64,000 bases of DNA from an uncultured Rickettsiales bacterium (lineage in GTDB: Bacteria > Pseudomonadota > Alphaproteobacteria > Rickettsiales > SXRF01). The translations under genes were made by a program, and so were the position numbers. The notes beneath the pieces are model-generated. The model worked only from the letters and a program-made list of their open reading frames with translations, ran no database searches and was not told where the DNA came from. Positions 1,279-62,058 of this stretch are shown here, piece after piece (positions within the stretch are counted from its first letter, which is position 1; each line of letters begins with the position of its first letter). The DNA is taken from positions 270,922 through 334,921 of the forward strand of contig CAYOOP010000001.1 in NCBI GenBank assembly GCA_964405685.1. Direction: 5' to 3'.

Positions 1279-1526
1279 TAGCGGCTGAAGACTTCTTTGA
1301 CGAGCAAGATAAACCATTGAATAATATGATCACCGACGCCTTTGAGAACGTCGGTGGCATACATCGCGTAGTCCACGCATTGAGGGATTTTGCTGGTGTC
1401 AAATAAACAGACCGAAAAGCCAGCGAATAATGCAATCAGTCCCACACCACTCAGTGCATGAAACACTTTGAAGATGGCGGGAGGAGTGGGGACGGGATGT
1501 TGCATAGACGATGTAATAAATGCCAT
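1275..1526 (-). CDS. Hypothetical small membrane protein
   Basis: 83-aa ORF with one hydrophobic stretch (GVGLIALFAGFSVCLF) and AGAGG about 8 nt upstream of the ATG. It fills the fliE-trmL gap convergently. No recognisable family. Confidence 0.3.
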   Translation of the reverse strand: MAFITSSMQHPVPTPPAIFKVFHALSGVGLIALFAGFSVCLFDTSKIPQCVDYAMYATDVLKGVGDHIIQWFILLVKEVFSRY

Positions 1527-1622
1527 GTTTAACCTCTCGCTTGATTATCTCAAATGAGGCTCGCTTCGTACAGGGATTTCGGCTAATTCTCGTCAAACTT
1601 CATCAAGTTGTCACAATTGCTT

Positions 1623-2069
1623 ATGCCCTCCATTGCCCTCTATCAGCCTGATATTGCTCAAAATGTTGGTGCCGTTATTCGCACCTGCGCCTGTTTTGGC
1701 GCTCCGCTACACATCATTGAACCGTGCGGGTTTATCTTCGATATGGCGCGGATTAAAAAGGCAGCGCTTGATTATGTGGAACATGCGGACGTTATCCGCC
1801 ACAGCAGTTTTGAGGTGTTTAGGAAAGATCGGCCGGCAGGGAAATTGGTGCTCTTTTCCACCAAGGCAACGCTTGATTATGATCAACACGCATTTGCACC
1901 CAATGATCTACTTCTCTTCGGGCGCGAGAGCGCGGGAGTGCCGGAAGATGTTGCGGCGGCAGCAGATGTATGTGTACGTATTCCGATGCGTGAAGGCATG
2001 CGTTCGCTTAATGTGGCGCAAACTGCGGCGATTGGAATTTCAGAAGCAATGAGGCAACACCGAGCATGA
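1623..2069 (+). CDS. trmL: tRNA (cytidine/uridine-2'-O)-methyltransferase TrmL (SpoU family)
   Basis: [34 protein letters not shown]... and C-terminal [15 protein letters not shown] are SpoU/TrmL motifs. I chose ATG 1623 inside the 1608 ORF. Confidence 0.85.
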
Positions 2070-3055
2070 TTAAAGACCAACAGGAAAAAGCAGCCGCGTG
2101 GTTTCGCGATTTACGCAACCGCATTTGCGCAGAATTTGAGAAGATCGAACAAGAATATAATATGTGGTCAGCAGACCACACCAGCCATGAGCCTACGAAG
2201 CAGCGCCCCATGGAATGTTCTCCTGAACATTCCATGGGGCTTTTCAAAAGAACACCCTGGAACCGCGAAGGCGGTGGGGGCGGTGAAATGTCGGTGATGA
2301 AAGGACGTGTGTTTGAAAAAGTAGGTGTGAATATTTCAACCGTACACGGTGAGTTTACACCTGAATTCCGCAAAGAAATGCCCAACGCACAAGAATATCC
2401 CTTCTTCTGGGCGAGCGGAATTTCCTTGGTTGCACATATGTGTTCCCCGAAGGTTCCGGCGGTGCATATGAATACAAGGATGATAGTGGTGTCGAAAGTA
2501 CCATTTAGTGATTCGAGGCCAGAAGGCCGAGTCAGCCCTGAGCTGCGCCTCATGGCGGATTCAGCAGAATCCGCCGGAGGCAATCAATATAAACTCTGGT
2601 TTGGTGGAGGTGCGGACCTCACGCCGATGAAGCCCGATGCCAAAGATACGGAGGATTTTCATGCGGCGTTTAAGGCCGCGTGCGATGCGCATGATGCAGG
2701 CTATTACCCCAAATTCAAACAATGGTGTGATGAGTATTTTTTCCTGAAACACCGTAATGAACCGCGCGGCGTGGGCGGGATTTTTTATGACTATGTGAAC
2801 ACCGGGAATTGGGATGCCGATTTTGCATTTACGCAATCCGTTGGCGAAGCGTTTTTGAATATCTACCCGCAATTAGTGCGGCGATATTACAAAGAAACAT
2901 GGACGAAGGAAGACCGAGAACACCAGCTGATGCGGCGCGGGAGGTATGTGGAGTTTAATTTGCTGTATGATCGCGGCACGCGGTTTGGGCTTATGACCGG
3001 TGGCAATACGGAGGCGATTTTGATGAGTCTTCCTCCAGAGGTGATGTGGCCATAA
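2066..3055 (+). CDS. hemF: Oxygen-dependent coproporphyrinogen III oxidase HemF, carrying two extra in-frame segments
   Basis: Motifs [66 protein letters not shown] and EAILMSLPP are present. ATGA overlap with trmL. At 329 aa it is longer than the roughly 280-300 aa I recall for HemF. Confidence 0.92.
2206..2239. repeat. Perfect palindrome (15-bp arms, 4-nt loop) inside the hemF coding sequence
   Basis: CCCCATGGAATGTTC-TCCT-GAACATTCCATGGGG read directly from the sequence. It encodes [12 protein letters not shown] in the hemF frame. Confidence 0.85.
2507..2587 (+). repeat. 81-bp hairpin-rich repeat element, in-frame copy 1 (inside hemF)
   Basis: An ungapped hand alignment to the reverse complement of 29421-29501 gives 57/81 identities. 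Hairpins are GGCC-AGAA-GGCC and GGCGGATTC-AGCA-GAATCCGCC. It encodes [27 protein letters not shown]. Confidence 0.7.
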
Positions 3056-3058
3056 ATT

Positions 3059-3109
3059 ATCATCCCGCCGAAGGGCAGAATCCGGATCCCGCGACAAGCG
3101 CAGGATGAC
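3059..3109. repeat. Intergenic element with ATCATCC...GGATGAC terminal inverted repeats (family copy 2)
   Basis: ATCATCCCGCC...GCAGGATGAC with a central ATCCGGAT palindrome and GGCAGAATC motif. Lies just after the hemF stop. Confidence 0.45.
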
Positions 3110-3139
3110 AGATGAAGTGCGGGCTGCTATAAGCACACT

Positions 3140-4237
3140 ATGTCTGCTTACATCATCCGCCGTTTGTTATTTATGATTCCGACGTTGTTGGGGATCATGG
3201 CGCTGAATTTCGCGATTGTGCAAGCAACTCCCGGCGGGCCAGTCGAACAGATGGTGGCAAAACTCACCCATATTGATCAAAGCAGCACCTCGCGCATTTC
3301 CAGCGGTGGGAGCGATTTTGCGGGTGCGTCGCAAGTCGCCATGAATGCAGAGACCGCTTATCGCGGCGCGCGGGGACTCGACCCCGAATTGATTGAACGA
3401 TTGGAAAAAATGTATGGGTTCGATAAGCCGCCGCTGACGCGATTTTTCTTGATGCTAAAAAACTATGCGACGCTTGATTTTGGTGAGAGTTTTTTTCGCA
3501 ATGAGCGCGTAACCACGCTGATTTGGAACACCCTGCCTGTCACCATTTCGCTGGGCTTATGGACGACGCTGCTCATCTACGGCATTTCGATTCCACTGGG
3601 CATTAAAAAAGCCGTGCGCGATGGTAGCACGTTTGATGTAGCAACCAGCACCTTGATTATCGTCGGCTATGCCATTCCCAGCTTCTTATTTGCGATTTTG
3701 CTCATCATTGTATTTGCCGGTGGCAATTATTTTCAGTGGTTCCCGCTGAAGGGTTTGAGTTCGGACAATGCTGCCGAGCTTGGATTTTTCGCACGGATTG
3801 GCGATTATTTTTGGCACATCACCCTGCCCGTTGTTGCCATGGTGCTAAGCGGATTCGCAAGCCTTACCATGCTCACCAAAAATTGTTTCTTAGATGAAAT
3901 CAGCAAGCAATATGTGTTAACCGCGCGTGCCAAAGGCCTGGCCGAACGCAAGGTGCTCTATGGCCATGTGTTTAGGAATGCGATGTTGATTATAATTGCA
4001 GGATTTCCGAGTGCACTGCTTGGGATTATGTTTACCTCGGCGCTGCTGATTGAAATTATTTTTTCGCTCAACGGGCTGGGGCTCTTGGGCTACGAAGCGG
4101 TGATCTCGCGGGATTACCCGATTATTTTCGGCACATTGTTTATCTTCACCTTACTCGGCCTCATCTCCAATTTAATTGGCGATTTGGTCTATATGTGGGT
4201 CGACCCGCGGATTGATTTTGATCGGAGGGGGGAATGA
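3140..4237 (+). CDS. yejB: ABC transporter permease, YejB-like (peptide/microcin C type)
   Basis: 365 aa. The N-terminus YIIRRLLFMIPTLLGIMALNFAIVQATPGGP is typical of OppB/YejB-type permeases. Multiple TM helices. First gene of a 3-gene overlapping operon. Confidence 0.85.
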   Translation: MSAYIIRRLLFMIPTLLGIMALNFAIVQATPGGPVEQMVAKLTHIDQSSTSRISSGGSDFAGASQVAMNAETAYRGARGLDPELIERLEKMYGFDKPPLTRFFLMLKNYATLDFGESFFRNERVTTLIWNTLPVTISLGLWTTLLIYGISIPLGIKKAVRDGSTFDVATSTLIIVGYAIPSFLFAILLIIVFAGGNYFQWFPLKGLSSDNAAELGFFARIGDYFWHITLPVVAMVLSGFASLTMLTKNCFLDEISKQYVLTARAKGLAERKVLYGHVFRNAMLIIIAGFPSALLGIMFTSALLIEIIFSLNGLGLLGYEAVISRDYPIIFGTLFIFTLLGLISNLIGDLVYMWVDPRIDFDRRGE

Positions 4238-5262
4238 CTTTTTCTCCGATTACGCAAAAACGCATCACCAAATTCCGCTCTAACAAGCGCGGCATTGTTT
4301 CGCTCTGGATTTTTCTTGCGCTGTTTATAGTCACGCTGTTTGCGGAGGTGATTGCCAACGATAAACCGCTGCTGCTTTCCTATCAGGGCAAGCTCTATGT
4401 GCCGATGGTAAAAACCTATAGTGAGCAAGCGTTTGGTGGGGATTTTGAGACAGAGGCGGTCTATCGCGATCCGGAATTTATCAAGCGGGTTAATGCGGAT
4501 GGGTGGATGGTGTGGCCGCTGTTGCACTACAGCTATTCTACCATCAATTACGATCTCGGACGTTCGACGCCAACGGCACCGGATGTGGCGAATCTGCTCG
4601 GGACGGATGATCAGGGGCGCGATGTATTGGCACGGGTGATTTATGGGTTCCGGATTTCGATTTTGTTTGCGCTGACGTTAACCTCGGTGAGTGCCGTGGT
4701 GGGGATTGTTACCGGCGCGTTACAAGGCTATTTTGGGGGGTGGACGGATTTGTTGTTTCAGCGGTTTATCGAGATTTGGTCGGGCCTGCCGGTGTTGTTT
4801 ATGCTGATTATTTTATCGAGTTTTGTGGAGCCGAATATTTTTTGGTTGCTGCTCATCATGCTACTTTTTTCGTGGATGAATTTAACCGGCGTGGTGCGCG
4901 CAGAATTTTTGCGTGCACGGAATTTTGATTATGTGAAAGCAGCGCGGGTGCTTGGAGTCTCCGAATGGCGGATTATGCTTAGGCATGTGCTGCCCAATGC
5001 GCTCACGGCGGCGCTTACCATTTTGCCGTTCATGCTTTCGCATGGGGTGACAGCGCTTACCACCCTGGATTTTCTGGGGTTTGGGTTGCCGCCGGGGTCG
5101 CCATCGCTTGGGGAATTACTGCTGCAGGGGAAAAATAATCCGCAAGCGCCGTGGCTGGGGATTACGGGCTTTCTGGTGATTGCATCGCTCTTAGTGCTGA
5201 TTATCTTTATCTCAGAAGCGGTGCGCGATGCGTTTGATGATCGGAAAGGAATGCGGCGATGA
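4234..5262 (+). CDS. yejE: ABC transporter permease, YejE-like
   Basis: 342 aa. LLGTDDQGRDVLARVIYGFRISILF is the OppC/YejE signature. 4-nt overlaps with both neighbours. Confidence 0.85.
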   Translation: MTFSPITQKRITKFRSNKRGIVSLWIFLALFIVTLFAEVIANDKPLLLSYQGKLYVPMVKTYSEQAFGGDFETEAVYRDPEFIKRVNADGWMVWPLLHYSYSTINYDLGRSTPTAPDVANLLGTDDQGRDVLARVIYGFRISILFALTLTSVSAVVGIVTGALQGYFGGWTDLLFQRFIEIWSGLPVLFMLIILSSFVEPNIFWLLLIMLLFSWMNLTGVVRAEFLRARNFDYVKAARVLGVSEWRIMLRHVLPNALTAALTILPFMLSHGVTALTTLDFLGFGLPPGSPSLGELLLQGKNNPQAPWLGITGFLVIASLLVLIIFISEAVRDAFDDRKGMRR

Positions 5263-57965: not shown

Positions 57966-58910
57966 CTAAGATATAAACAAATCCGTGCTCAAATAGCGCT
58001 CGGCGCTGGAAGCAGCGATTGCGACAATGCGCTTGCCTTTCATTTCCGGGCGGGCAGCGATTTTGAGTGCTGCCGCGATCGCAGCACCAGAAGAAATGCC
58101 GACGGGCAAGCCCTCCAGTTTCGCAACTTTGCGGGCGACATCAAAGGCTTCCTCATTGGTAATTTGGATGACTTCGTCGATCAATTCGCGTTTTAAAATC
58201 GCAGGCACGAATCCTGCACCGATGCCTTGAATTTTATGCTGGCCGGGCGCACCGCCGGAAAGAATGGGGCTGCCGGCAGGTTCCACGGCAACGATTTGAA
58301 TCGCCACATTGCGGTTTTTGAGTGCGTTGCCGACGCCGGTAAGCGTGCCGCCGGTACCTACCCCAGTGACGAATACGTCCACCTTCCCACCCGTATCATG
58401 CCAAATTTCCTCCGCCGTGGTGCGTTCGTGAATTGCGGGATTGGCGGGGTTTTCAAATTGTTGGAGCATGAGTGCATGGGGATTGCTCGCAACCATCTCC
58501 TGTGCGCGGGCAATGGCTGCTTTCATACCGCCGGTAGCGGGCGTAAGTTCCAGGTTAGCGCCCAAGTGGGTTAGTATTTTGCGGCGCTCAAGTGACATGG
58601 TCTCCGGCATACAAATAGTGAGCTTGTAGCCCTTGGCCGCGCAGATGAAAGCGAGCGCAATACCGGTGTTACCGGAAGTGGGCTCTACGAGTAGTGTATC
58701 CTTCGTAAGTCTGCCGCTACGTTCTGCCGCTTCAATCATCGAATAAGCAATGCGGTCTTTGATGGAAGAAAGCGGATTGAAAAACTCGCATTTGACCAAT
58801 ACTTCACCCGGCAAATTTTTAGCCAGTGCGTTCAAACGCACGAGCGGCGTGTTGCCGATCGTGTCCACTATCGAATCATACACCTTGCCCCGAAGAGGCT
58901 TATCAAGCAT
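57966..58910 (-). CDS. cysK: Cysteine synthase A (O-acetylserine sulfhydrylase)
   Basis: [20 protein letters not shown] (PLP Lys), EPTSGNTG and GTGGT motifs. Confidence 0.95.
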
Positions 58911-59373
58911 TTGCTGCTTCTTTTTGCTTCACGCCGGTAGACCCAAACCCGCCGGTGCCGCGTGCGGTTTCATCCAGGCTTGCAACGGGCGTAAAGGCGC
59001 TTTGCACCACCGGCGCAATCACCATTTGGGCAATGCGCATGCCGCGCTCAATCGTAAAAGGCTCTGCACTTAAATTCACCAAGATTACCTTTACTTCGCC
59101 GCGGTAATCCGCATCAATCGTGCCGGGGGAATTGAGTACCGTAATGCCGTTTTTGGCAGCCAGACCCGAACGTGGACGCACCTGTGCCTCAAACCCTTCG
59201 GGCAACGCCATCGCAAACCCACACGGCACCAGCGCGCGCTCCATAGGCCTCAGCGTCATCGGCGCATCAATCGCTGCGGGCAAATCCAGCCCGGCGCTGT
59301 GAGAAGTGGCATACGCCGGAAGCGGCAGGCCTTCGCCGTGGGGAAACACTGTAATACGAGTAGTTATGTCCAT
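58903..59373 (-). CDS. dut: dUTP diphosphatase
   Basis: [31 protein letters not shown] and GFGSTG. I chose internal ATG 59373. Confidence 0.93.
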
Positions 59374-60095
59374 TGTTCGATAATCTTTCGTGTAAGTTGT
59401 TCGGCGATTTTTTTCTTGCTGCCGTGCCAGGTTTCTGACGTGTCGGCGGTTATCCATAGCACCGTTGTTGCCTCAGCATCAAATATTTTTCCGTCCGAAA
59501 CGTCATTGGCAATCATCCAATCGCAGCCTTTGGCTTTGCGTTTTTGCTTAGCACGTGCCTCCAACTGTTCTGTCTCGGCTGCAAAACCAATCACCAGCTT
59601 GGGGCGCGGATTGCTTCTGGCGATGGCTTTTAAAATATCCGGGTTTTGCACCAGTTCTATGGCAGGCGCTGCATCTGTTTTCTTGATTTTCTGACGCGCT
59701 ACTTTCTTAGGCCGCCAGTCCGAAACCGCCGCTGCGCTGATGAAAATATCAACGGGCAATACGCTTTTGCACGCCGCCAGCATCTCTTTGGCGGTCGTCA
59801 CCTTAATCACACTCAATTGTTTCGGATCCGGAATGGAAACTGGGCCGGAGACCAAAATAACCTCCGCGCCTGCATCGCGCAGCGCCTCCGCAATCGCATG
59901 GCCTTGCTTGCCGGAGGAACGATTGCCAAGAAAACGCACAGGATCCAGCGGTTCGTGCGTGGGGCCGCTGGTGACGAGTACTTTTAAGCCTTTCAAGGAG
60001 TTCATACCCTTAAGAATATCATCGTAGCCTTCGGACTTTGCAAGCGCATTATGATTGTATTTTATATTTGACATTATGTATTTTATATCATACAA
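59364..60095 (-). CDS. coaB: Phosphopantothenate-cysteine ligase (CoaB domain as a separate ORF)
   Basis: [37 protein letters not shown] and GFAAET motifs of the Dfp C-terminal domain. The start codon is uncertain (candidates 60095, 60074, 60005). Confidence 0.85.
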
Positions 60096-60096
60096 T
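60068..60096 (+). promoter_or_regulatory. Sigma-70-like promoter for the toxin-antitoxin pair, embedded in operator-like repeats
   Basis: TTGACA (60068-60073), a 17-nt spacer, then TACAAT (60091-60096), 6 nt before ATG 60103. Flanked by the inverted repeat GATTGTAT/ATACAATC and two TGTATTTTATAT direct repeats 21 bp apart. Confidence 0.5.
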
Positions 60097-60102
60097 CAAA
60101 CG

Positions 60103-60399
60103 ATGTTCCAAATCCTTCAAACGACAGTGTTTGAAAAATGGTTGCGCGGTATGAGGGACAGGCGGGCGAAAGATCGTATCCTCGCGCGCCTGGTGCGTAT
60201 GGGTGCAGGAAACCTTGGGGACGTGAAGTCCGTGGGCGAGGGTGTAACCGAGGCGCGTATTGACTATGGGCCGGGCTATCGCCTCTATTTTATTCGCCAC
60301 AAGAAGACCGTGCTGGTGATGCTGGGTGGAGGAGATAAATCCTCACAAGCCAGAGATATTAAACGCGCCAAGGAATTGGCGAAGGGATGGGAGATATAA
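60103..60399 (+). CDS. Type II toxin, RelE/HigB superfamily ('addiction module killer protein' type)
   Basis: FEKWLRGMRDRRAKDRILARLVRMGAGNLGDVKSVGEGVTEARIDYGPGYRLYF....VLVMLGGGDKSSQARDIKRAKELA matches the killer-protein family pattern I recall (GN.GD.K.VGEGV.E.RID.GPGYR.YF, GGDKS.Q..DI..A). Confidence 0.85.
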   Translation: MFQILQTTVFEKWLRGMRDRRAKDRILARLVRMGAGNLGDVKSVGEGVTEARIDYGPGYRLYFIRHKKTVLVMLGGGDKSSQARDIKRAKELAKGWEI

Positions 60400-60690
60400 G
60401 TGATGAAAAAAACAAAAACCACCGTATTCGATGCAGCCGATTACCTCAAAACCGAACGCGATATGCTGGGGTTTTTAAGCGCCTGTTTTGAAGAAGCGGG
60501 GGATGATGCCGCCTATATTGCCGCTGCACTCGGCGTGGTTGCGCGCGCTAAGGGAATGACAAAACTGGCCAAAGAAACCGGCGTCACCCGTGCAGCGCTT
60601 TACCACGCACTGTCTAAAAAGGGGAATCCTGAATTCAGCACCGTGCTCAAGGTGATTCACGCGCTGGGCCTGAAACTGCAGGTGGCGTAA
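60400..60690 (+). CDS. Type II antitoxin, HTH 'addiction module antidote protein' (HigA-like)
   Basis: FDAADYLKTERDMLGFLSACFEEAGDDAAYIAAALGVVARAKGMTKLAKETGVTRAALYHALSKKGNPEFSTVLKVIHALGLKL is the family pattern. Abuts the toxin stop (GTG 60400 / ATG 60403). Confidence 0.85.
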   Translation: MMKKTKTTVFDAADYLKTERDMLGFLSACFEEAGDDAAYIAAALGVVARAKGMTKLAKETGVTRAALYHALSKKGNPEFSTVLKVIHALGLKLQVA

Positions 60691-60695
60691 AGCTT

Positions 60696-61109
60696 TTAGC
60701 GGGTCAATTGATTGGGAGAATCTTGTGCCACACGGTCACGGTGTGTGGTGGTTTCGACATGCGGCGTTTCATTCATGGGGGTGGGGTAACGGATTTCTTC
60801 GGCACCAAGTGCAGTGCGCTGCTTTTCGATTTCGGCGGCCTTATTTCTGCTGCTAAACCAAGATATCAAACCAGTAACTCCCCCAGCCAACCCTACCCAC
60901 GTAGCAACCGTATAAAATCCCATTCTGAAAGAAGACGGGGTTTTGTTCTTGAGTGTTTCTAGCTCCTTAACCGCACTCCCTGCAGCAGTGACTAAGGCAC
61001 CAGTCATTATTTGGCTATTTGAAGTATTCATATCATTACGCGTCTGCTCGGCTTGTTTTGCAAGTTTGTCGCGTTCAACGTCTAGCGGTGTTTCGTATAT
61101 TTTTGCCAT
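60696..61109 (-). CDS. Hypothetical protein with a central hydrophobic segment
   Basis: 137-aa ORF between coaC and the TA pair, on the coaC strand. Contains GFYTVATWVGLAGGVTGLISWF, a TM-like stretch. No family recognised. Confidence 0.45.
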   Translation of the reverse strand: MAKIYETPLDVERDKLAKQAEQTRNDMNTSNSQIMTGALVTAAGSAVKELETLKNKTPSSFRMGFYTVATWVGLAGGVTGLISWFSSRNKAAEIEKQRTALGAEEIRYPTPMNETPHVETTTHRDRVAQDSPNQLTR

Positions 61110-61153
61110 TCGATCAGTTTAACTAGGTCTGCAGGGCTTTAATAGTGAAAGTT

Positions 61154-61678
61154 TTATGACAGAATCGCTTTCACAATCGCTTCCGGTTCACTCATGCGGC
61201 CGAAGCCCTCTTCCCCGCACGCAAGATCACCCTTGGCGGGGGCAATGATTTTTACACCATCTGCTTCAATTTGCTTGATATTGCGCTGGGTGGCCTTGTG
61301 TTCCCACATAGCCGCATTCATCGCCGGGGCCACAAAAATGGGGCAGCGGGCAGCAAGCAGCGCACAACTCGCCAGATCATCGGCCACGCCATGCGCCATT
61401 TTGGCGACGATATCGGCAGAAGCTGGAGCTACAAGTACACAGTCGGCCTCTCGAGAAAGGCGGATATGACCCATTTCCACTTCGTCTTTAAGGCTAAATA
61501 TGTCTTGATATACAGGGTGTTCAGAAAGTGCCGCGACACTTAATGGGGTTACAAATTCAGCCCCTCCGCGCGTTAAAATACAACGCACTTGCACTCCCCG
61601 CTTTTTCAGCAAGCGGATGATTTCAAGCGATTTATAGGCAGCAATGCTGCCGGTGATGATGAGCAAAATAGATTTCAT
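61154..61678 (-). CDS. coaC: Phosphopantothenoylcysteine decarboxylase (CoaC flavoprotein domain as a separate ORF)
   Basis: ILLIITGSIAAYKSLEIIRLL, VAPASADIVAKMAHGVADDL, APAMN..MW, and LACGEEGFGRMSEP at the end. This matches the Dfp N-terminal domain and stops where the linker normally starts. Confidence 0.88.
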   Translation of the reverse strand: MKSILLIITGSIAAYKSLEIIRLLKKRGVQVRCILTRGGAEFVTPLSVAALSEHPVYQDIFSLKDEVEMGHIRLSREADCVLVAPASADIVAKMAHGVADDLASCALLAARCPIFVAPAMNAAMWEHKATQRNIKQIEADGVKIIAPAKGDLACGEEGFGRMSEPEAIVKAILS

Positions 61679-61698
61679 GACAATTCCAATGACACCCC

Positions 61699-61727
61699 TT
61701 GCAAAACTGCGGTAATGCTAGTATATT
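61699..61727 (+). promoter_or_regulatory. Candidate promoter of the tmRNA gene
   Basis: TTGCAA (61699-61704), a 17-nt spacer, then TATATT (61722-61727), upstream of the tRNA-like acceptor piece. Confidence 0.4.
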
Positions 61728-61732
61728 AGTAG

Positions 61733-62058
61733 CTGTCACGCAAGTGGCTATGGCAATAAACGCTGCTTAGAATAGACGATTTGGACCCGGGGGCAGAGCC
61801 CGGCATCTCCACCTGATCCGGCAAAGCCGGATCAGGTGGGGATGAATCAGTTTCGACAGACGTAATAAAAATTCAGTTTTTGCCAAGCATGACACCGCTT
61901 TAAAGGGTCATTTTATAAATGCTAACGACAACGTTGCATTTGTTGCTGCTAACGACAACAACGTCGCTGCAGTTGCTGTAGCTGCCTAAGTGGCACTTCA
62001 GTAGCTCTTAGCTCAACGCGGTTTGGGGTGTACCGGGCAACAGAAACACCCCACTTTT
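61733..62058 (+). ncRNA. ssrA: Two-piece (circularly permuted) tmRNA gene: acceptor piece, excised hairpin, coding piece
   Basis: The upstream piece ends GGAC-CCGGG-GGCAGAG-CCCGG-CATCTCC-A-CC (T-arm plus 3' acceptor strand, to 61813). A hairpin spacer ACCTGATCCGGC-AAA-GCCGGATCAGGT follows. The downstream piece starts GGGGATG (61838) and pairs with CATCTCC, giving a G3:U70 wobble. Then come the UUCGAC motif and a tag ORF GCT AAC GAC AAC ... GCT GCC TAA. The 5' boundary is approximate. Confidence 0.8.

Follow-up and report, generated by a model that had tools for sequence, protein, structure and literature searches.

Probable insertion of a toxin-antitoxin segment between already separate coaC and coaB genes of an uncultured alphaproteobacterium

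The coaC-coaB locus was analysed in a 64-kb stretch of chromosomal DNA (the window) from an uncultured alphaproteobacterium. An ORF check confirmed the four ORFs listed in the first-pass annotation, and the layout proposed there was recovered with the same coordinates: coaC, a 137-aa ORF on the same strand (ORF137), a toxin-antitoxin (TA) pair on the opposite strand, and coaB. Downstream of coaB and also on the minus strand are dut, encoding dUTPase (58903-59373; PF00692, E 4e-33), which overlaps the 3' end of coaB by 10 nt, and a gene for a PLP-dependent, cysteine synthase-like enzyme (cysK; 57966-58910; PF00291, E 8e-78), which overlaps dut by 8 nt. Gene calls and synteny place dut in a conserved coaB-dut-cysK run, of which the cysteine synthase-like gene is the final member; its synteny is kept in relatives L001, L002 and L058. 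On the other side of the locus, a two-piece alphaproteobacterial tmRNA gene (61695-62055, plus strand; Rfam RF01849, 206 bits, E 3e-58) is divergent from coaC and located 16 nt from its start codon, and the same neighbour was found in L002. A tmRNA of this type identifies the host as an alphaproteobacterium.

The coaC gene (61154-61678, minus strand) encodes 174 aa that match PF02441 over profile positions 1-159 of 162 (E 8e-36), the N-terminal half of the bifunctional NCBIfam model TIGR00521 (positions 4-174 of 392; 212.7 bits), and residues 6-171 of M. smegmatis CoaBC (6tgv; E 1e-34). All five CoaC motifs (GSIAAYK, MGHI, PASAD, PAMN and ACGEEGFGR) were found, which cover the FMN-binding, His, PAxAN/PAMN and ACGxxGxGR substrate-clamp signatures used to define the family. 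With a full-length domain and this motif set the product is, as judged from its sequence, a stand-alone CoaC (PPCDC, an HFCD flavoprotein). The coaB gene (59364-60005, minus strand) encodes 213 aa from ATG 60005 that match PF04127 over positions 1-184 of 186 (E 5e-68), the C-terminal half of TIGR00521 (positions 182-391 of 392; 213.2 bits) and E. coli CoaB (1u7u; E 1e-41), the last alignment including the Asn of GNRSSGK and KIKK. The marks of a stand-alone CoaB were taken to be GPTxExxDPVRxxxNxSSG, the KIKK lysine, GFAAET and an own start codon. The GPT-type nucleotide-binding motif, the lysine and GFAAET were all found, and by these, the full-length domain and a start Met shared with the stand-alone relatives the product classifies as a stand-alone CoaB (PPCS). 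The motif check and the alignments to solved CoaB and CoaBC structures bear out the earlier claim that both enzyme halves retain their conserved motifs. The two do not make up a bifunctional CoaBC (Dfp) protein, being encoded by two ORFs 1.15 kb apart that each score below the TIGR00521 whole-protein cut-off of 219.7. No second coaBC copy was found within the 64-kb window.

In the first-pass annotation coaB had been drawn as a 243-aa ORF (59364-60095) with a linker-like N-terminus. This ORF is over-extended: homology to the relatives begins at ATG 60005, and the start of coaB was therefore reset to that codon. The opening residues, Met-(Asn/Lys)-x-Leu-Lys-Gly, are common to L001, L002, L053, L054 and L056. 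The 30 codons upstream of ATG 60005 overlie the TA promoter and presumed operator and have no counterpart elsewhere; what had looked like a linker is an in-frame reading of the TA control region, with no homology to any linker. Public gene calls add a spurious 23-residue N-terminus to CoaB, which bears on automated annotation. A TTG at 59996, located 10 nt after AAGGG, is an alternative coaB start.

The toxin gene (60103-60399, plus strand) encodes a 98-aa member of the RelE/ParE superfamily, HI1419 family, and matches TIGR02683 at 126 bits against a cut-off of 62.85 (profile positions 2-95 of 95) as well as phrog_3445, annotated 'toxin' (E 3e-33). Its start is ATG 60103 and not TTG 60055. The antitoxin gene (60400-60690, plus strand) encodes a helix-turn-helix 'addiction module antidote protein' of the HI1420 family, which matches TIGR02684 at 117.4 bits against a cut-off of 53.7 (profile positions 2-88 of 89), PF21716 (E 9e-26), HTH_3 and phrog_4268. 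The two genes abut on the same strand, the toxin ending at 60399 and the antitoxin beginning at 60400, with the toxin first as in HigBA-like modules. By these profile matches the pair is a type II TA system of the HI1419/HI1420 family with both genes full length and intact. The first-pass annotation had read it as a HigB/HigA-type pair with its own promoter, and this holds in that a toxin-first RelE/ParE-type pair scores above curated cut-offs and a promoter with 11/12 matches was predicted upstream of it.

The predicted TA promoter, TTGACA-17-TACAAT (60068-60096, plus strand), is sigma-70-like and sits inside an imperfect palindrome, TGATTGTAT...ATACAATCA (60052-60098), which was found as a 15-nt inverted repeat and for which a DNA fold was also computed. 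Two 12-nt direct repeats accompany the palindrome in the control region, and together they are presumed to form the antitoxin operator. With the end of the -10 element just 6 nt from the toxin ATG, the toxin mRNA is likely to be leaderless. The control region as a whole spans 97 nt and immediately precedes coaB, which is encoded on the opposite strand. Toxin homologues were found on 938 plasmid records, the best of them (55-61% identity) on alphaproteobacterial plasmids, and when the DNA of the insert was searched against plasmids, the TA part alone was matched, at 65-77% identity. The pair resembles the HI1419/HI1420 modules that are common on plasmids in its full-length proteins, toxin-first order, abutting genes and predicted strong promoter within a palindrome, but differs from the plasmid modules in that it is carried on the chromosome, squeezed between two genes for essential biosynthetic enzymes.

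ORF137 (60696-61109, minus strand) encodes 137 aa and is convergent with the antitoxin gene, the two stop codons being 5 nt apart. No match was found in Pfam, NCBIfam or PHROG, and a word-indexed protein search returned only the protein itself, but exhaustive phmmer found 17 full-length homologues (E 2e-15 to 6e-4). They form a sparse, uncharacterised family with a conserved N-terminus (MAKIYET..D.ERD.L in the alignment) and their chromosomal neighbourhoods are unrelated and contain no TA pair. An AlphaFold2 model (pLDDT 71) with helices at residues 8-54 and 60-101 predicts a helical hairpin; its search against PDB folds gave no match at E <= 0.001, only generic non-significant ones. The ORF had been called membrane-like: the ORF itself is present, whereas its membrane nature is weakly supported, by a single stretch of moderate hydrophobicity (highest Kyte-Doolittle average over 19 residues, 1.3).

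Comparison with relatives located the boundaries of the segment between the two enzyme genes. Homology by blastn to L002, L053 and L056 stops at window position 61161 and resumes at 60005, and these breakpoints are only 3 nt apart in the relatives (769|773 in L002, 2258|2262 in L053 and 224|228 in L056); therefore, a net length of about 1,152 nt (60006-61160), comprising ORF137, the TA pair and the TA control region, appears to have been inserted in the stop/start overlap of coaC and coaB. The insert supplies the last coaC codon (TCA, Ser) and a TAA stop where the relatives end in ...AILG-TGA, so that Gly-TGA has become Ser-TAA, and the coaB ATG at 60005 is untouched. The cassette of about 1 kb described between coaC and coaB in the first-pass annotation is thus a genuine insertion of about 1.15 kb that the relatives lack, and coaB has indeed lost its direct link to coaC, the genes now being 1.15 kb apart.

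The central claim attached to that cassette, namely that it had turned a fused coaBC (dfp) gene into two genes, did not survive, since relatives without the cassette are already split. A comparison of dfp loci in relatives had been set beforehand as the test of the claim, and it gave the refuting outcome, an ancestral split. Among the relatives that lack the cassette, six distinct ones have coaC and coaB side by side as separate genes; the overlap is ATGA in four of them, TGATG in one and 10 nt in another. The ATGA overlap of coaC stop and coaB start was seen in L002, L053, L056, L054/L055 and L004; in L006 the genes overlap by the single base of TGATG, and the 10-nt overlap is that of L059. 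In two further genomes coaB is unlinked from coaC, following thyX in L001 and standing in the order mutS, gap, coaB in L058. L002 is 88% identical to the window proteins in CoaC and 79% in CoaB, and L053 is 90% identical in CoaC and 93% in CoaB over the part present. In a census by an automated frame/stop rule, 117 of 139 loci were fused and 15 were split, in a sample chosen by similarity to the window proteins and not as an estimate of prevalence. All sampled relatives with a CoaB at least 60% identical are split, and the nearest fused genes reach at most 58%. In a neighbour-joining tree without support values the stand-alone CoaBs group together, with one fused gene (L015, Micavibrio sp.) inside the split group. 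On these comparisons, the coaC/coaB split is older than the insertion. Because all relatives compared are other species, with flanking DNA 75-81% identical, we infer the state of this genome's own lineage just before the insertion.

The arrangement is thus very probably the result of an insertion of about 1,152 nt, carrying ORF137 and the TA operon, into the stop/start overlap of coaC and coaB genes that were already separate. That a fused coaBC was instead cut at its inter-domain linker in this genome, giving two genes, is very unlikely. The cassette does lie exactly at the domain boundary, the genes are fused in most bacteria (PMC7794376) as in most of the loci sampled here, and a deletion between two ATTCT pentamers near the junctions would restore one in-frame gene. 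The six cassette-free relatives, however, have their stop/start overlap at the same position, with two more unlinked, and the CoaB start is shared by L001, L002, L053, L054 and L056, while the codons upstream of ATG 60005 overlie the TA promoter and have no linker homology. A fused immediate ancestor would also require re-fusion after a clade-wide split.

Still less probable is a cassette that was ancestral at the junction and was lost from the relatives by precise deletion. Loss of TA modules and of small orphan genes is common, but this scenario has no direct support, and it calls for independent precise deletions that each remade the overlap, including those in the distant L054, L059, L004 and L006; the similarity of the TA pair to plasmid-borne pairs above all others and the location of ORF137 homologues elsewhere in other genomes also argue against it. 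The least probable explanation is an assembly artefact by which a 1.15-kb segment was mis-joined into the coaC-coaB junction. The genome is apparently known only from metagenome or short-read assemblies, yet the cassette and the same neighbourhood were found in all five of the contigs examined that encode an identical CoaB, some of which exceed 200 kb, and records of the public protein come from NCBI, ENA and Logan. Moreover, the coaC frame closes cleanly at the new stop inside the insert, and the window holds no second copy of the insert and no repeat of it that could cause a mis-join.

As to how the segment was inserted, it does not qualify as an autonomous or mobilisable element (IS, transposon, MITE or integrative island): its three ORFs include no transposase or recombinase by Pfam, NCBIfam and PHROG, and a repeat search found no inverted repeats at its two ends. 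The search for a target-site duplication, which the first-pass annotation had called for, gave no clean duplication but only the 5-nt ATTCT near both junctions, once at the coaC end and once 9 nt before the coaB ATG. This repeat was rejected as a sign of transposition, as neither copy abuts its junction exactly and such a recurrence would be expected by chance with an estimated probability of about 6% (about 1 in 15). Because there is no recombinase, no terminal repeat and no clear target duplication, we infer that the insertion arose by illegitimate recombination.

In the history favoured here, coaBC of the host lineage had already been split into two genes overlapping by ATGA, an overlap that would allow translational coupling of coaC and coaB. 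Later a segment of about 1,152 nt, with ORF137 and a plasmid-type HI1419/HI1420 TA operon, would have entered the overlap and removed it, leaving the TA operon antisense between coaC and coaB. The coaB-dut-cysK run would then be transcribed in one of two ways, through the insert as read-through of transcripts that start on the coaC side, or from a weak promoter within the AT-rich control region of the TA pair, and ribosomes would initiate de novo on coaB where coupling is no longer available. The TA module may make the insert harder to lose. No terminator was predicted between coaC and coaB, and fold prediction found no terminator-like fold at the convergent ORF137/antitoxin junction (z about 0). 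A promoter scan of the minus strand for coaB found nothing above 9/12 matches. A further and unlikely reading is that the insertion rewired control of this essential operon, with coaB-dut-cysK transcribed from the AT-rich 97-nt control region, divergently from the TA promoter, and its level governed by occupancy of the palindromic operator. If so, binding of the antitoxin, alone or in complex with the toxin, would determine how strongly the genes for CoA synthesis, dUTPase and cysteine synthase are expressed, core metabolism would be tied to the state of the TA module, and the cassette would be doubly hard to lose.

CoaB (PPCS) and CoaC (PPCDC) are also encoded by two genes in Streptococcus pneumoniae, Mycoplasma iowae and M. 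fermentans. In M. iowae and M. fermentans NCTC10117 the two genes are consistently four nucleotides apart (PMC8721197), a tight juxtaposition like the stop/start overlaps of the clade studied here. The streptococcal-type stand-alone models nevertheless fit poorly (TIGR02113, 160 bits against a cut-off of 261; TIGR02114, 72 against 217), and both halves match the bifunctional TIGR00521 far better. From these profile scores a coaBC of the proteobacterial type seems to have been split independently and more recently, and a non-exhaustive literature search found no description of this alphaproteobacterial split. The bifunctional CoaBC (Dfp) of E. coli and M. smegmatis (6TGV) has the same two domains and motifs and gives the best sequence matches. 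In the fused dodecamer a 10-residue connecting loop packs against both domains (PMC7794376), whereas here the loop and any covalent link between the domains are absent, and about 7 residues of CoaB precede the GPT motif region.

Overall, the locus shows a tidy small insertion of an ordinary kind, in a lineage whose coaBC had been split earlier. This corrects the attractive but wrong story of an essential fused gene broken in two by a selfish TA cassette. It also puts on record a lineage of alphaproteobacteria with coaBC divided into overlapping genes and repeatedly unlinked, which bears on the view of the fused dodecameric CoaBC as near-universal in bacteria. The junction described here would be a natural case of lost translational coupling in an essential operon, useful for studying how expression is regained.

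The ORF map and the domain searches revealed the layout that had been read from the sequence, with coaC and coaB as separate genes on the minus strand. Gene coaC (61678-61154) encodes 174 aa and spans the whole flavoprotein domain (PF02441, E 8e-36); in the coaB ORF, which terminates at 59364, the DFP/CoaB domain is likewise complete (PF04127, E 5e-68). Downstream follow dut and cysK (PLP-dependent, cysteine synthase-like), with overlapping ends. Between coaC and coaB lie a minus-strand ORF of 137 aa (ORF137, 61109-60696) and, on the plus strand, a toxin-antitoxin (TA) pair: a 98-aa toxin (60103-60399; TIGR02683, RelE/ParE-family toxin, 126 bits against an NCBIfam cut-off of 62.9) and an abutting 96-aa antitoxin (60400-60690; TIGR02684, antidote protein, 117 bits against 53.7). 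Both proteins score far over the cut-offs of the paired HI1419/HI1420 families to which they belong, and a near-consensus promoter (TTGACA-17-TACAAT, 60068-60096, plus strand) lies upstream of the toxin, in keeping with the earlier proposal of an opposed TA pair with its own promoter. An inverted repeat (60052-60066 / 60084-60098), together with two 12-nt direct repeats, encloses this promoter, an arrangement typical of antitoxin operators and here a putative one. The toxin ATG stands only 6 nt after the -10 hexamer, without a Shine-Dalgarno sequence (60091-60105, plus strand), and this spacing suggests that the TA mRNA is leaderless. A two-piece (permuted) alphaproteobacterial tmRNA gene (61695-62055, plus strand) begins 16 nt away from the start codon of coaC in divergent orientation, so the promoters of these two genes must overlap each other's 5′ regions; a tmRNA gene was also found beside coaC in the related locus L002.

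Comparison by blastn with the loci of the closest relatives (L002, L053 and L056) found that homology is lost at 61161 and regained at 60005, two points that are 3 nt apart in each of the relatives. Therefore, about 1,152 nt entered the stop/start overlap itself. The empty site in these relatives reads gcgattctYggATGAaYtcc, and the same site in the window reads GCGATTCTG / TCATAA...insert...AAGGGT / ATGAACTCC (slashes mark the junctions). As a result, coaC is without its former last codon and TGA and now ends with Ser-TAA from insert sequence, and the coaB ATG is untouched. Neither a recombinase gene nor terminal inverted repeats are present in the insert, and the 64-kb window has no other copy of it. 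A search for a target-site duplication, as proposed in the first-pass annotation, returned only the pentamer ATTCT, at the coaC end and again 9 nt upstream of the start of coaB. Both copies are offset from the junctions and the chance of such a repeat was estimated at about 6%, and the pentamer was not counted as a target duplication.

The 243-aa coaB ORF (TTG at 60095) crosses the TA promoter/operator, as does the gene call in the public record (236 aa, ATG at 60074, P0001). The stand-alone CoaB proteins of relatives begin with Met-(Asn/Lys)-x-Leu-Lys-Gly, which aligns with MNSLKGLK at ATG 60005, exactly where DNA homology with the relatives begins. By conservation, the coaB start is placed at ATG 60005; the N-terminal extension previously described as linker-like is therefore spurious, reflecting a frame that happens to be open across the TA control region, and the call at 60074 in the deposited genome is probably an annotation error. 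An AAGGG lies 1 nt before ATG 60005 and 10 nt before an in-frame TTG at 59996, and a complete CoaB domain is predicted from either start.

The closest CoaB homologues in a collection of 5.8 billion proteins are all about 213-217 aa long, versus about 400 aa for fused proteins. In L002 (CoaC 88%, CoaB 79% identity) the order tmRNA-coaC-coaB-dut-cysK is that of the window without the insert, and the coaC TGA overlaps the coaB ATG (ggATGAaa). The same ATGA overlap was found in L053 (CoaC 90%), L056 (CoaB 75%), L054/L055 (CoaB 64%) and L004, an uncultured Rickettsiales MAG (CoaB 57%), with an overlap of 10 nt in L059 (CoaB 60%) and of 1 nt (TGATG) in L006, an Alphaproteobacteria MAG (CoaB 56%). 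Two relatives have no coaC near coaB, which follows thyX with an ATGA overlap in L001 (69%; 2393-3972) and mutS in L058 (55%; 1340-4684); in both, coaB has moved away from coaC and the coaB-dut linkage is retained. Locus L057 was left out as evidence on coaC because a run of N within its coaC-like gene (about 3830-3845) makes the 140-aa gene call on this NCBI MAG contig unreliable. The split cannot be a sequencing error, since the same junction recurs in assemblies made independently from different samples and two relatives have coaB physically unlinked from coaC. An automated frame/stop rule sorted 117 of 139 fetched loci as fused and 15 as split; all those with CoaB identity of at least 60% were split, and the nearest fused genes reached at most 58%. 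The stand-alone CoaBs cluster in a neighbour-joining tree (without support values), with one fused Micavibrio gene inside an unresolved part of the group.

It had been proposed that the TA cassette cut a fused coaBC (dfp) gene in two at the inter-domain linker. Because a deletion between the two ATTCT pentamers would yield one open frame, we leave this proposal a very slim chance for the present genome, but cassette-free relatives already have separate coaC and coaB genes, the very outcome that the first-pass annotation had set as refuting it, and as the headline reading it is refuted. Judged from these loci, the coaBC split is older than the cassette, and what the window holds is a small TA-bearing insertion located precisely in the overlap of already separate genes.

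TA modules in chromosomal intergenic spots are commonplace. Among 938 plasmid records with a homologue of the toxin, plasmids of Rhizobium, Sphingomonas, Sphingobium and Paracoccus gave the best matches (55-61% identity), and a DNA search of the insert against plasmids matched its TA part alone (65-77% identity); the TA pair thus belongs to a common type of mobile module. ORF137 proved not to be the orphan it was taken for: exhaustive phmmer searching found 17 full-length homologues (31-40% identity over the matched stretch), and the 18 sequences form a sparse, uncharacterised family with a common MAKIYET..D.ERD.L N-terminus, a glycine-rich hydrophobic stretch and LGPEEV. AlphaFold2 models it as a helical hairpin (pLDDT 71), for which no significant PDB fold match was found. 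The homologues occur singly and in unrelated chromosomal contexts: between hom and ctaB-ctaG (L145), before rpmF-plsX-fabH in the samples that also contain the relative L054/L055, and with an integrase fragment, a Tn3 transposase and a ParE toxin as neighbours (L060). Family members were placed at 2513-2938 in L145, 535-969 in L062 and 6001-6441 in L060. The insert therefore combines two modules, ORF137 and the TA pair, that are independent of each other; stabilisation of the insert by the TA module is plausible.

CoaC and CoaB keep the conserved family motifs, as noted in the first-pass annotation, and align along their length with solved CoaB and CoaBC structures. As stand-alone CoaB is also the norm in this clade, the two are expected to function as two proteins. 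The change wrought by the insertion is one of expression: the overlap allowing translational coupling is gone, and coaB-dut-cysK now lies 1.15 kb away from coaC across a gap that includes the antisense TA operon. No terminator-like structure was found at the convergent ends of ORF137 and the antitoxin (z about 0), and such hits are not in excess in the region (6 versus 4.4 expected from shuffling), so transcripts starting on the coaC side could read through into coaB-dut-cysK. Upstream of coaB, the minus strand offers at best a weak promoter candidate (TTGGAA-18-TATAAA, 9/12).

CoaBC is fused as a rule in prokaryotes (PMC7794376), and separate genes are documented in S. pneumoniae, M. iowae and M. 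fermentans, the pair being four nucleotides apart in the latter two (PMC8721197); a limited literature check found no description of the split in this lineage. Compared with the streptococcal stand-alone models, the halves of the bifunctional model fit the proteins here far better, and the split looks like an independent one of a proteobacterial-type gene. Separate coaC and coaB genes were also observed in metagenome loci L109, L115, L126 and L136, with a GTGA overlap (junctions near 1587, 742, 523 and 559, respectively), and in L106, with TGAgATG at 3019. The CoaBs of this second split group are 44-47% identical to that of the window, and coaBC seems to have been split at the linker more than once.
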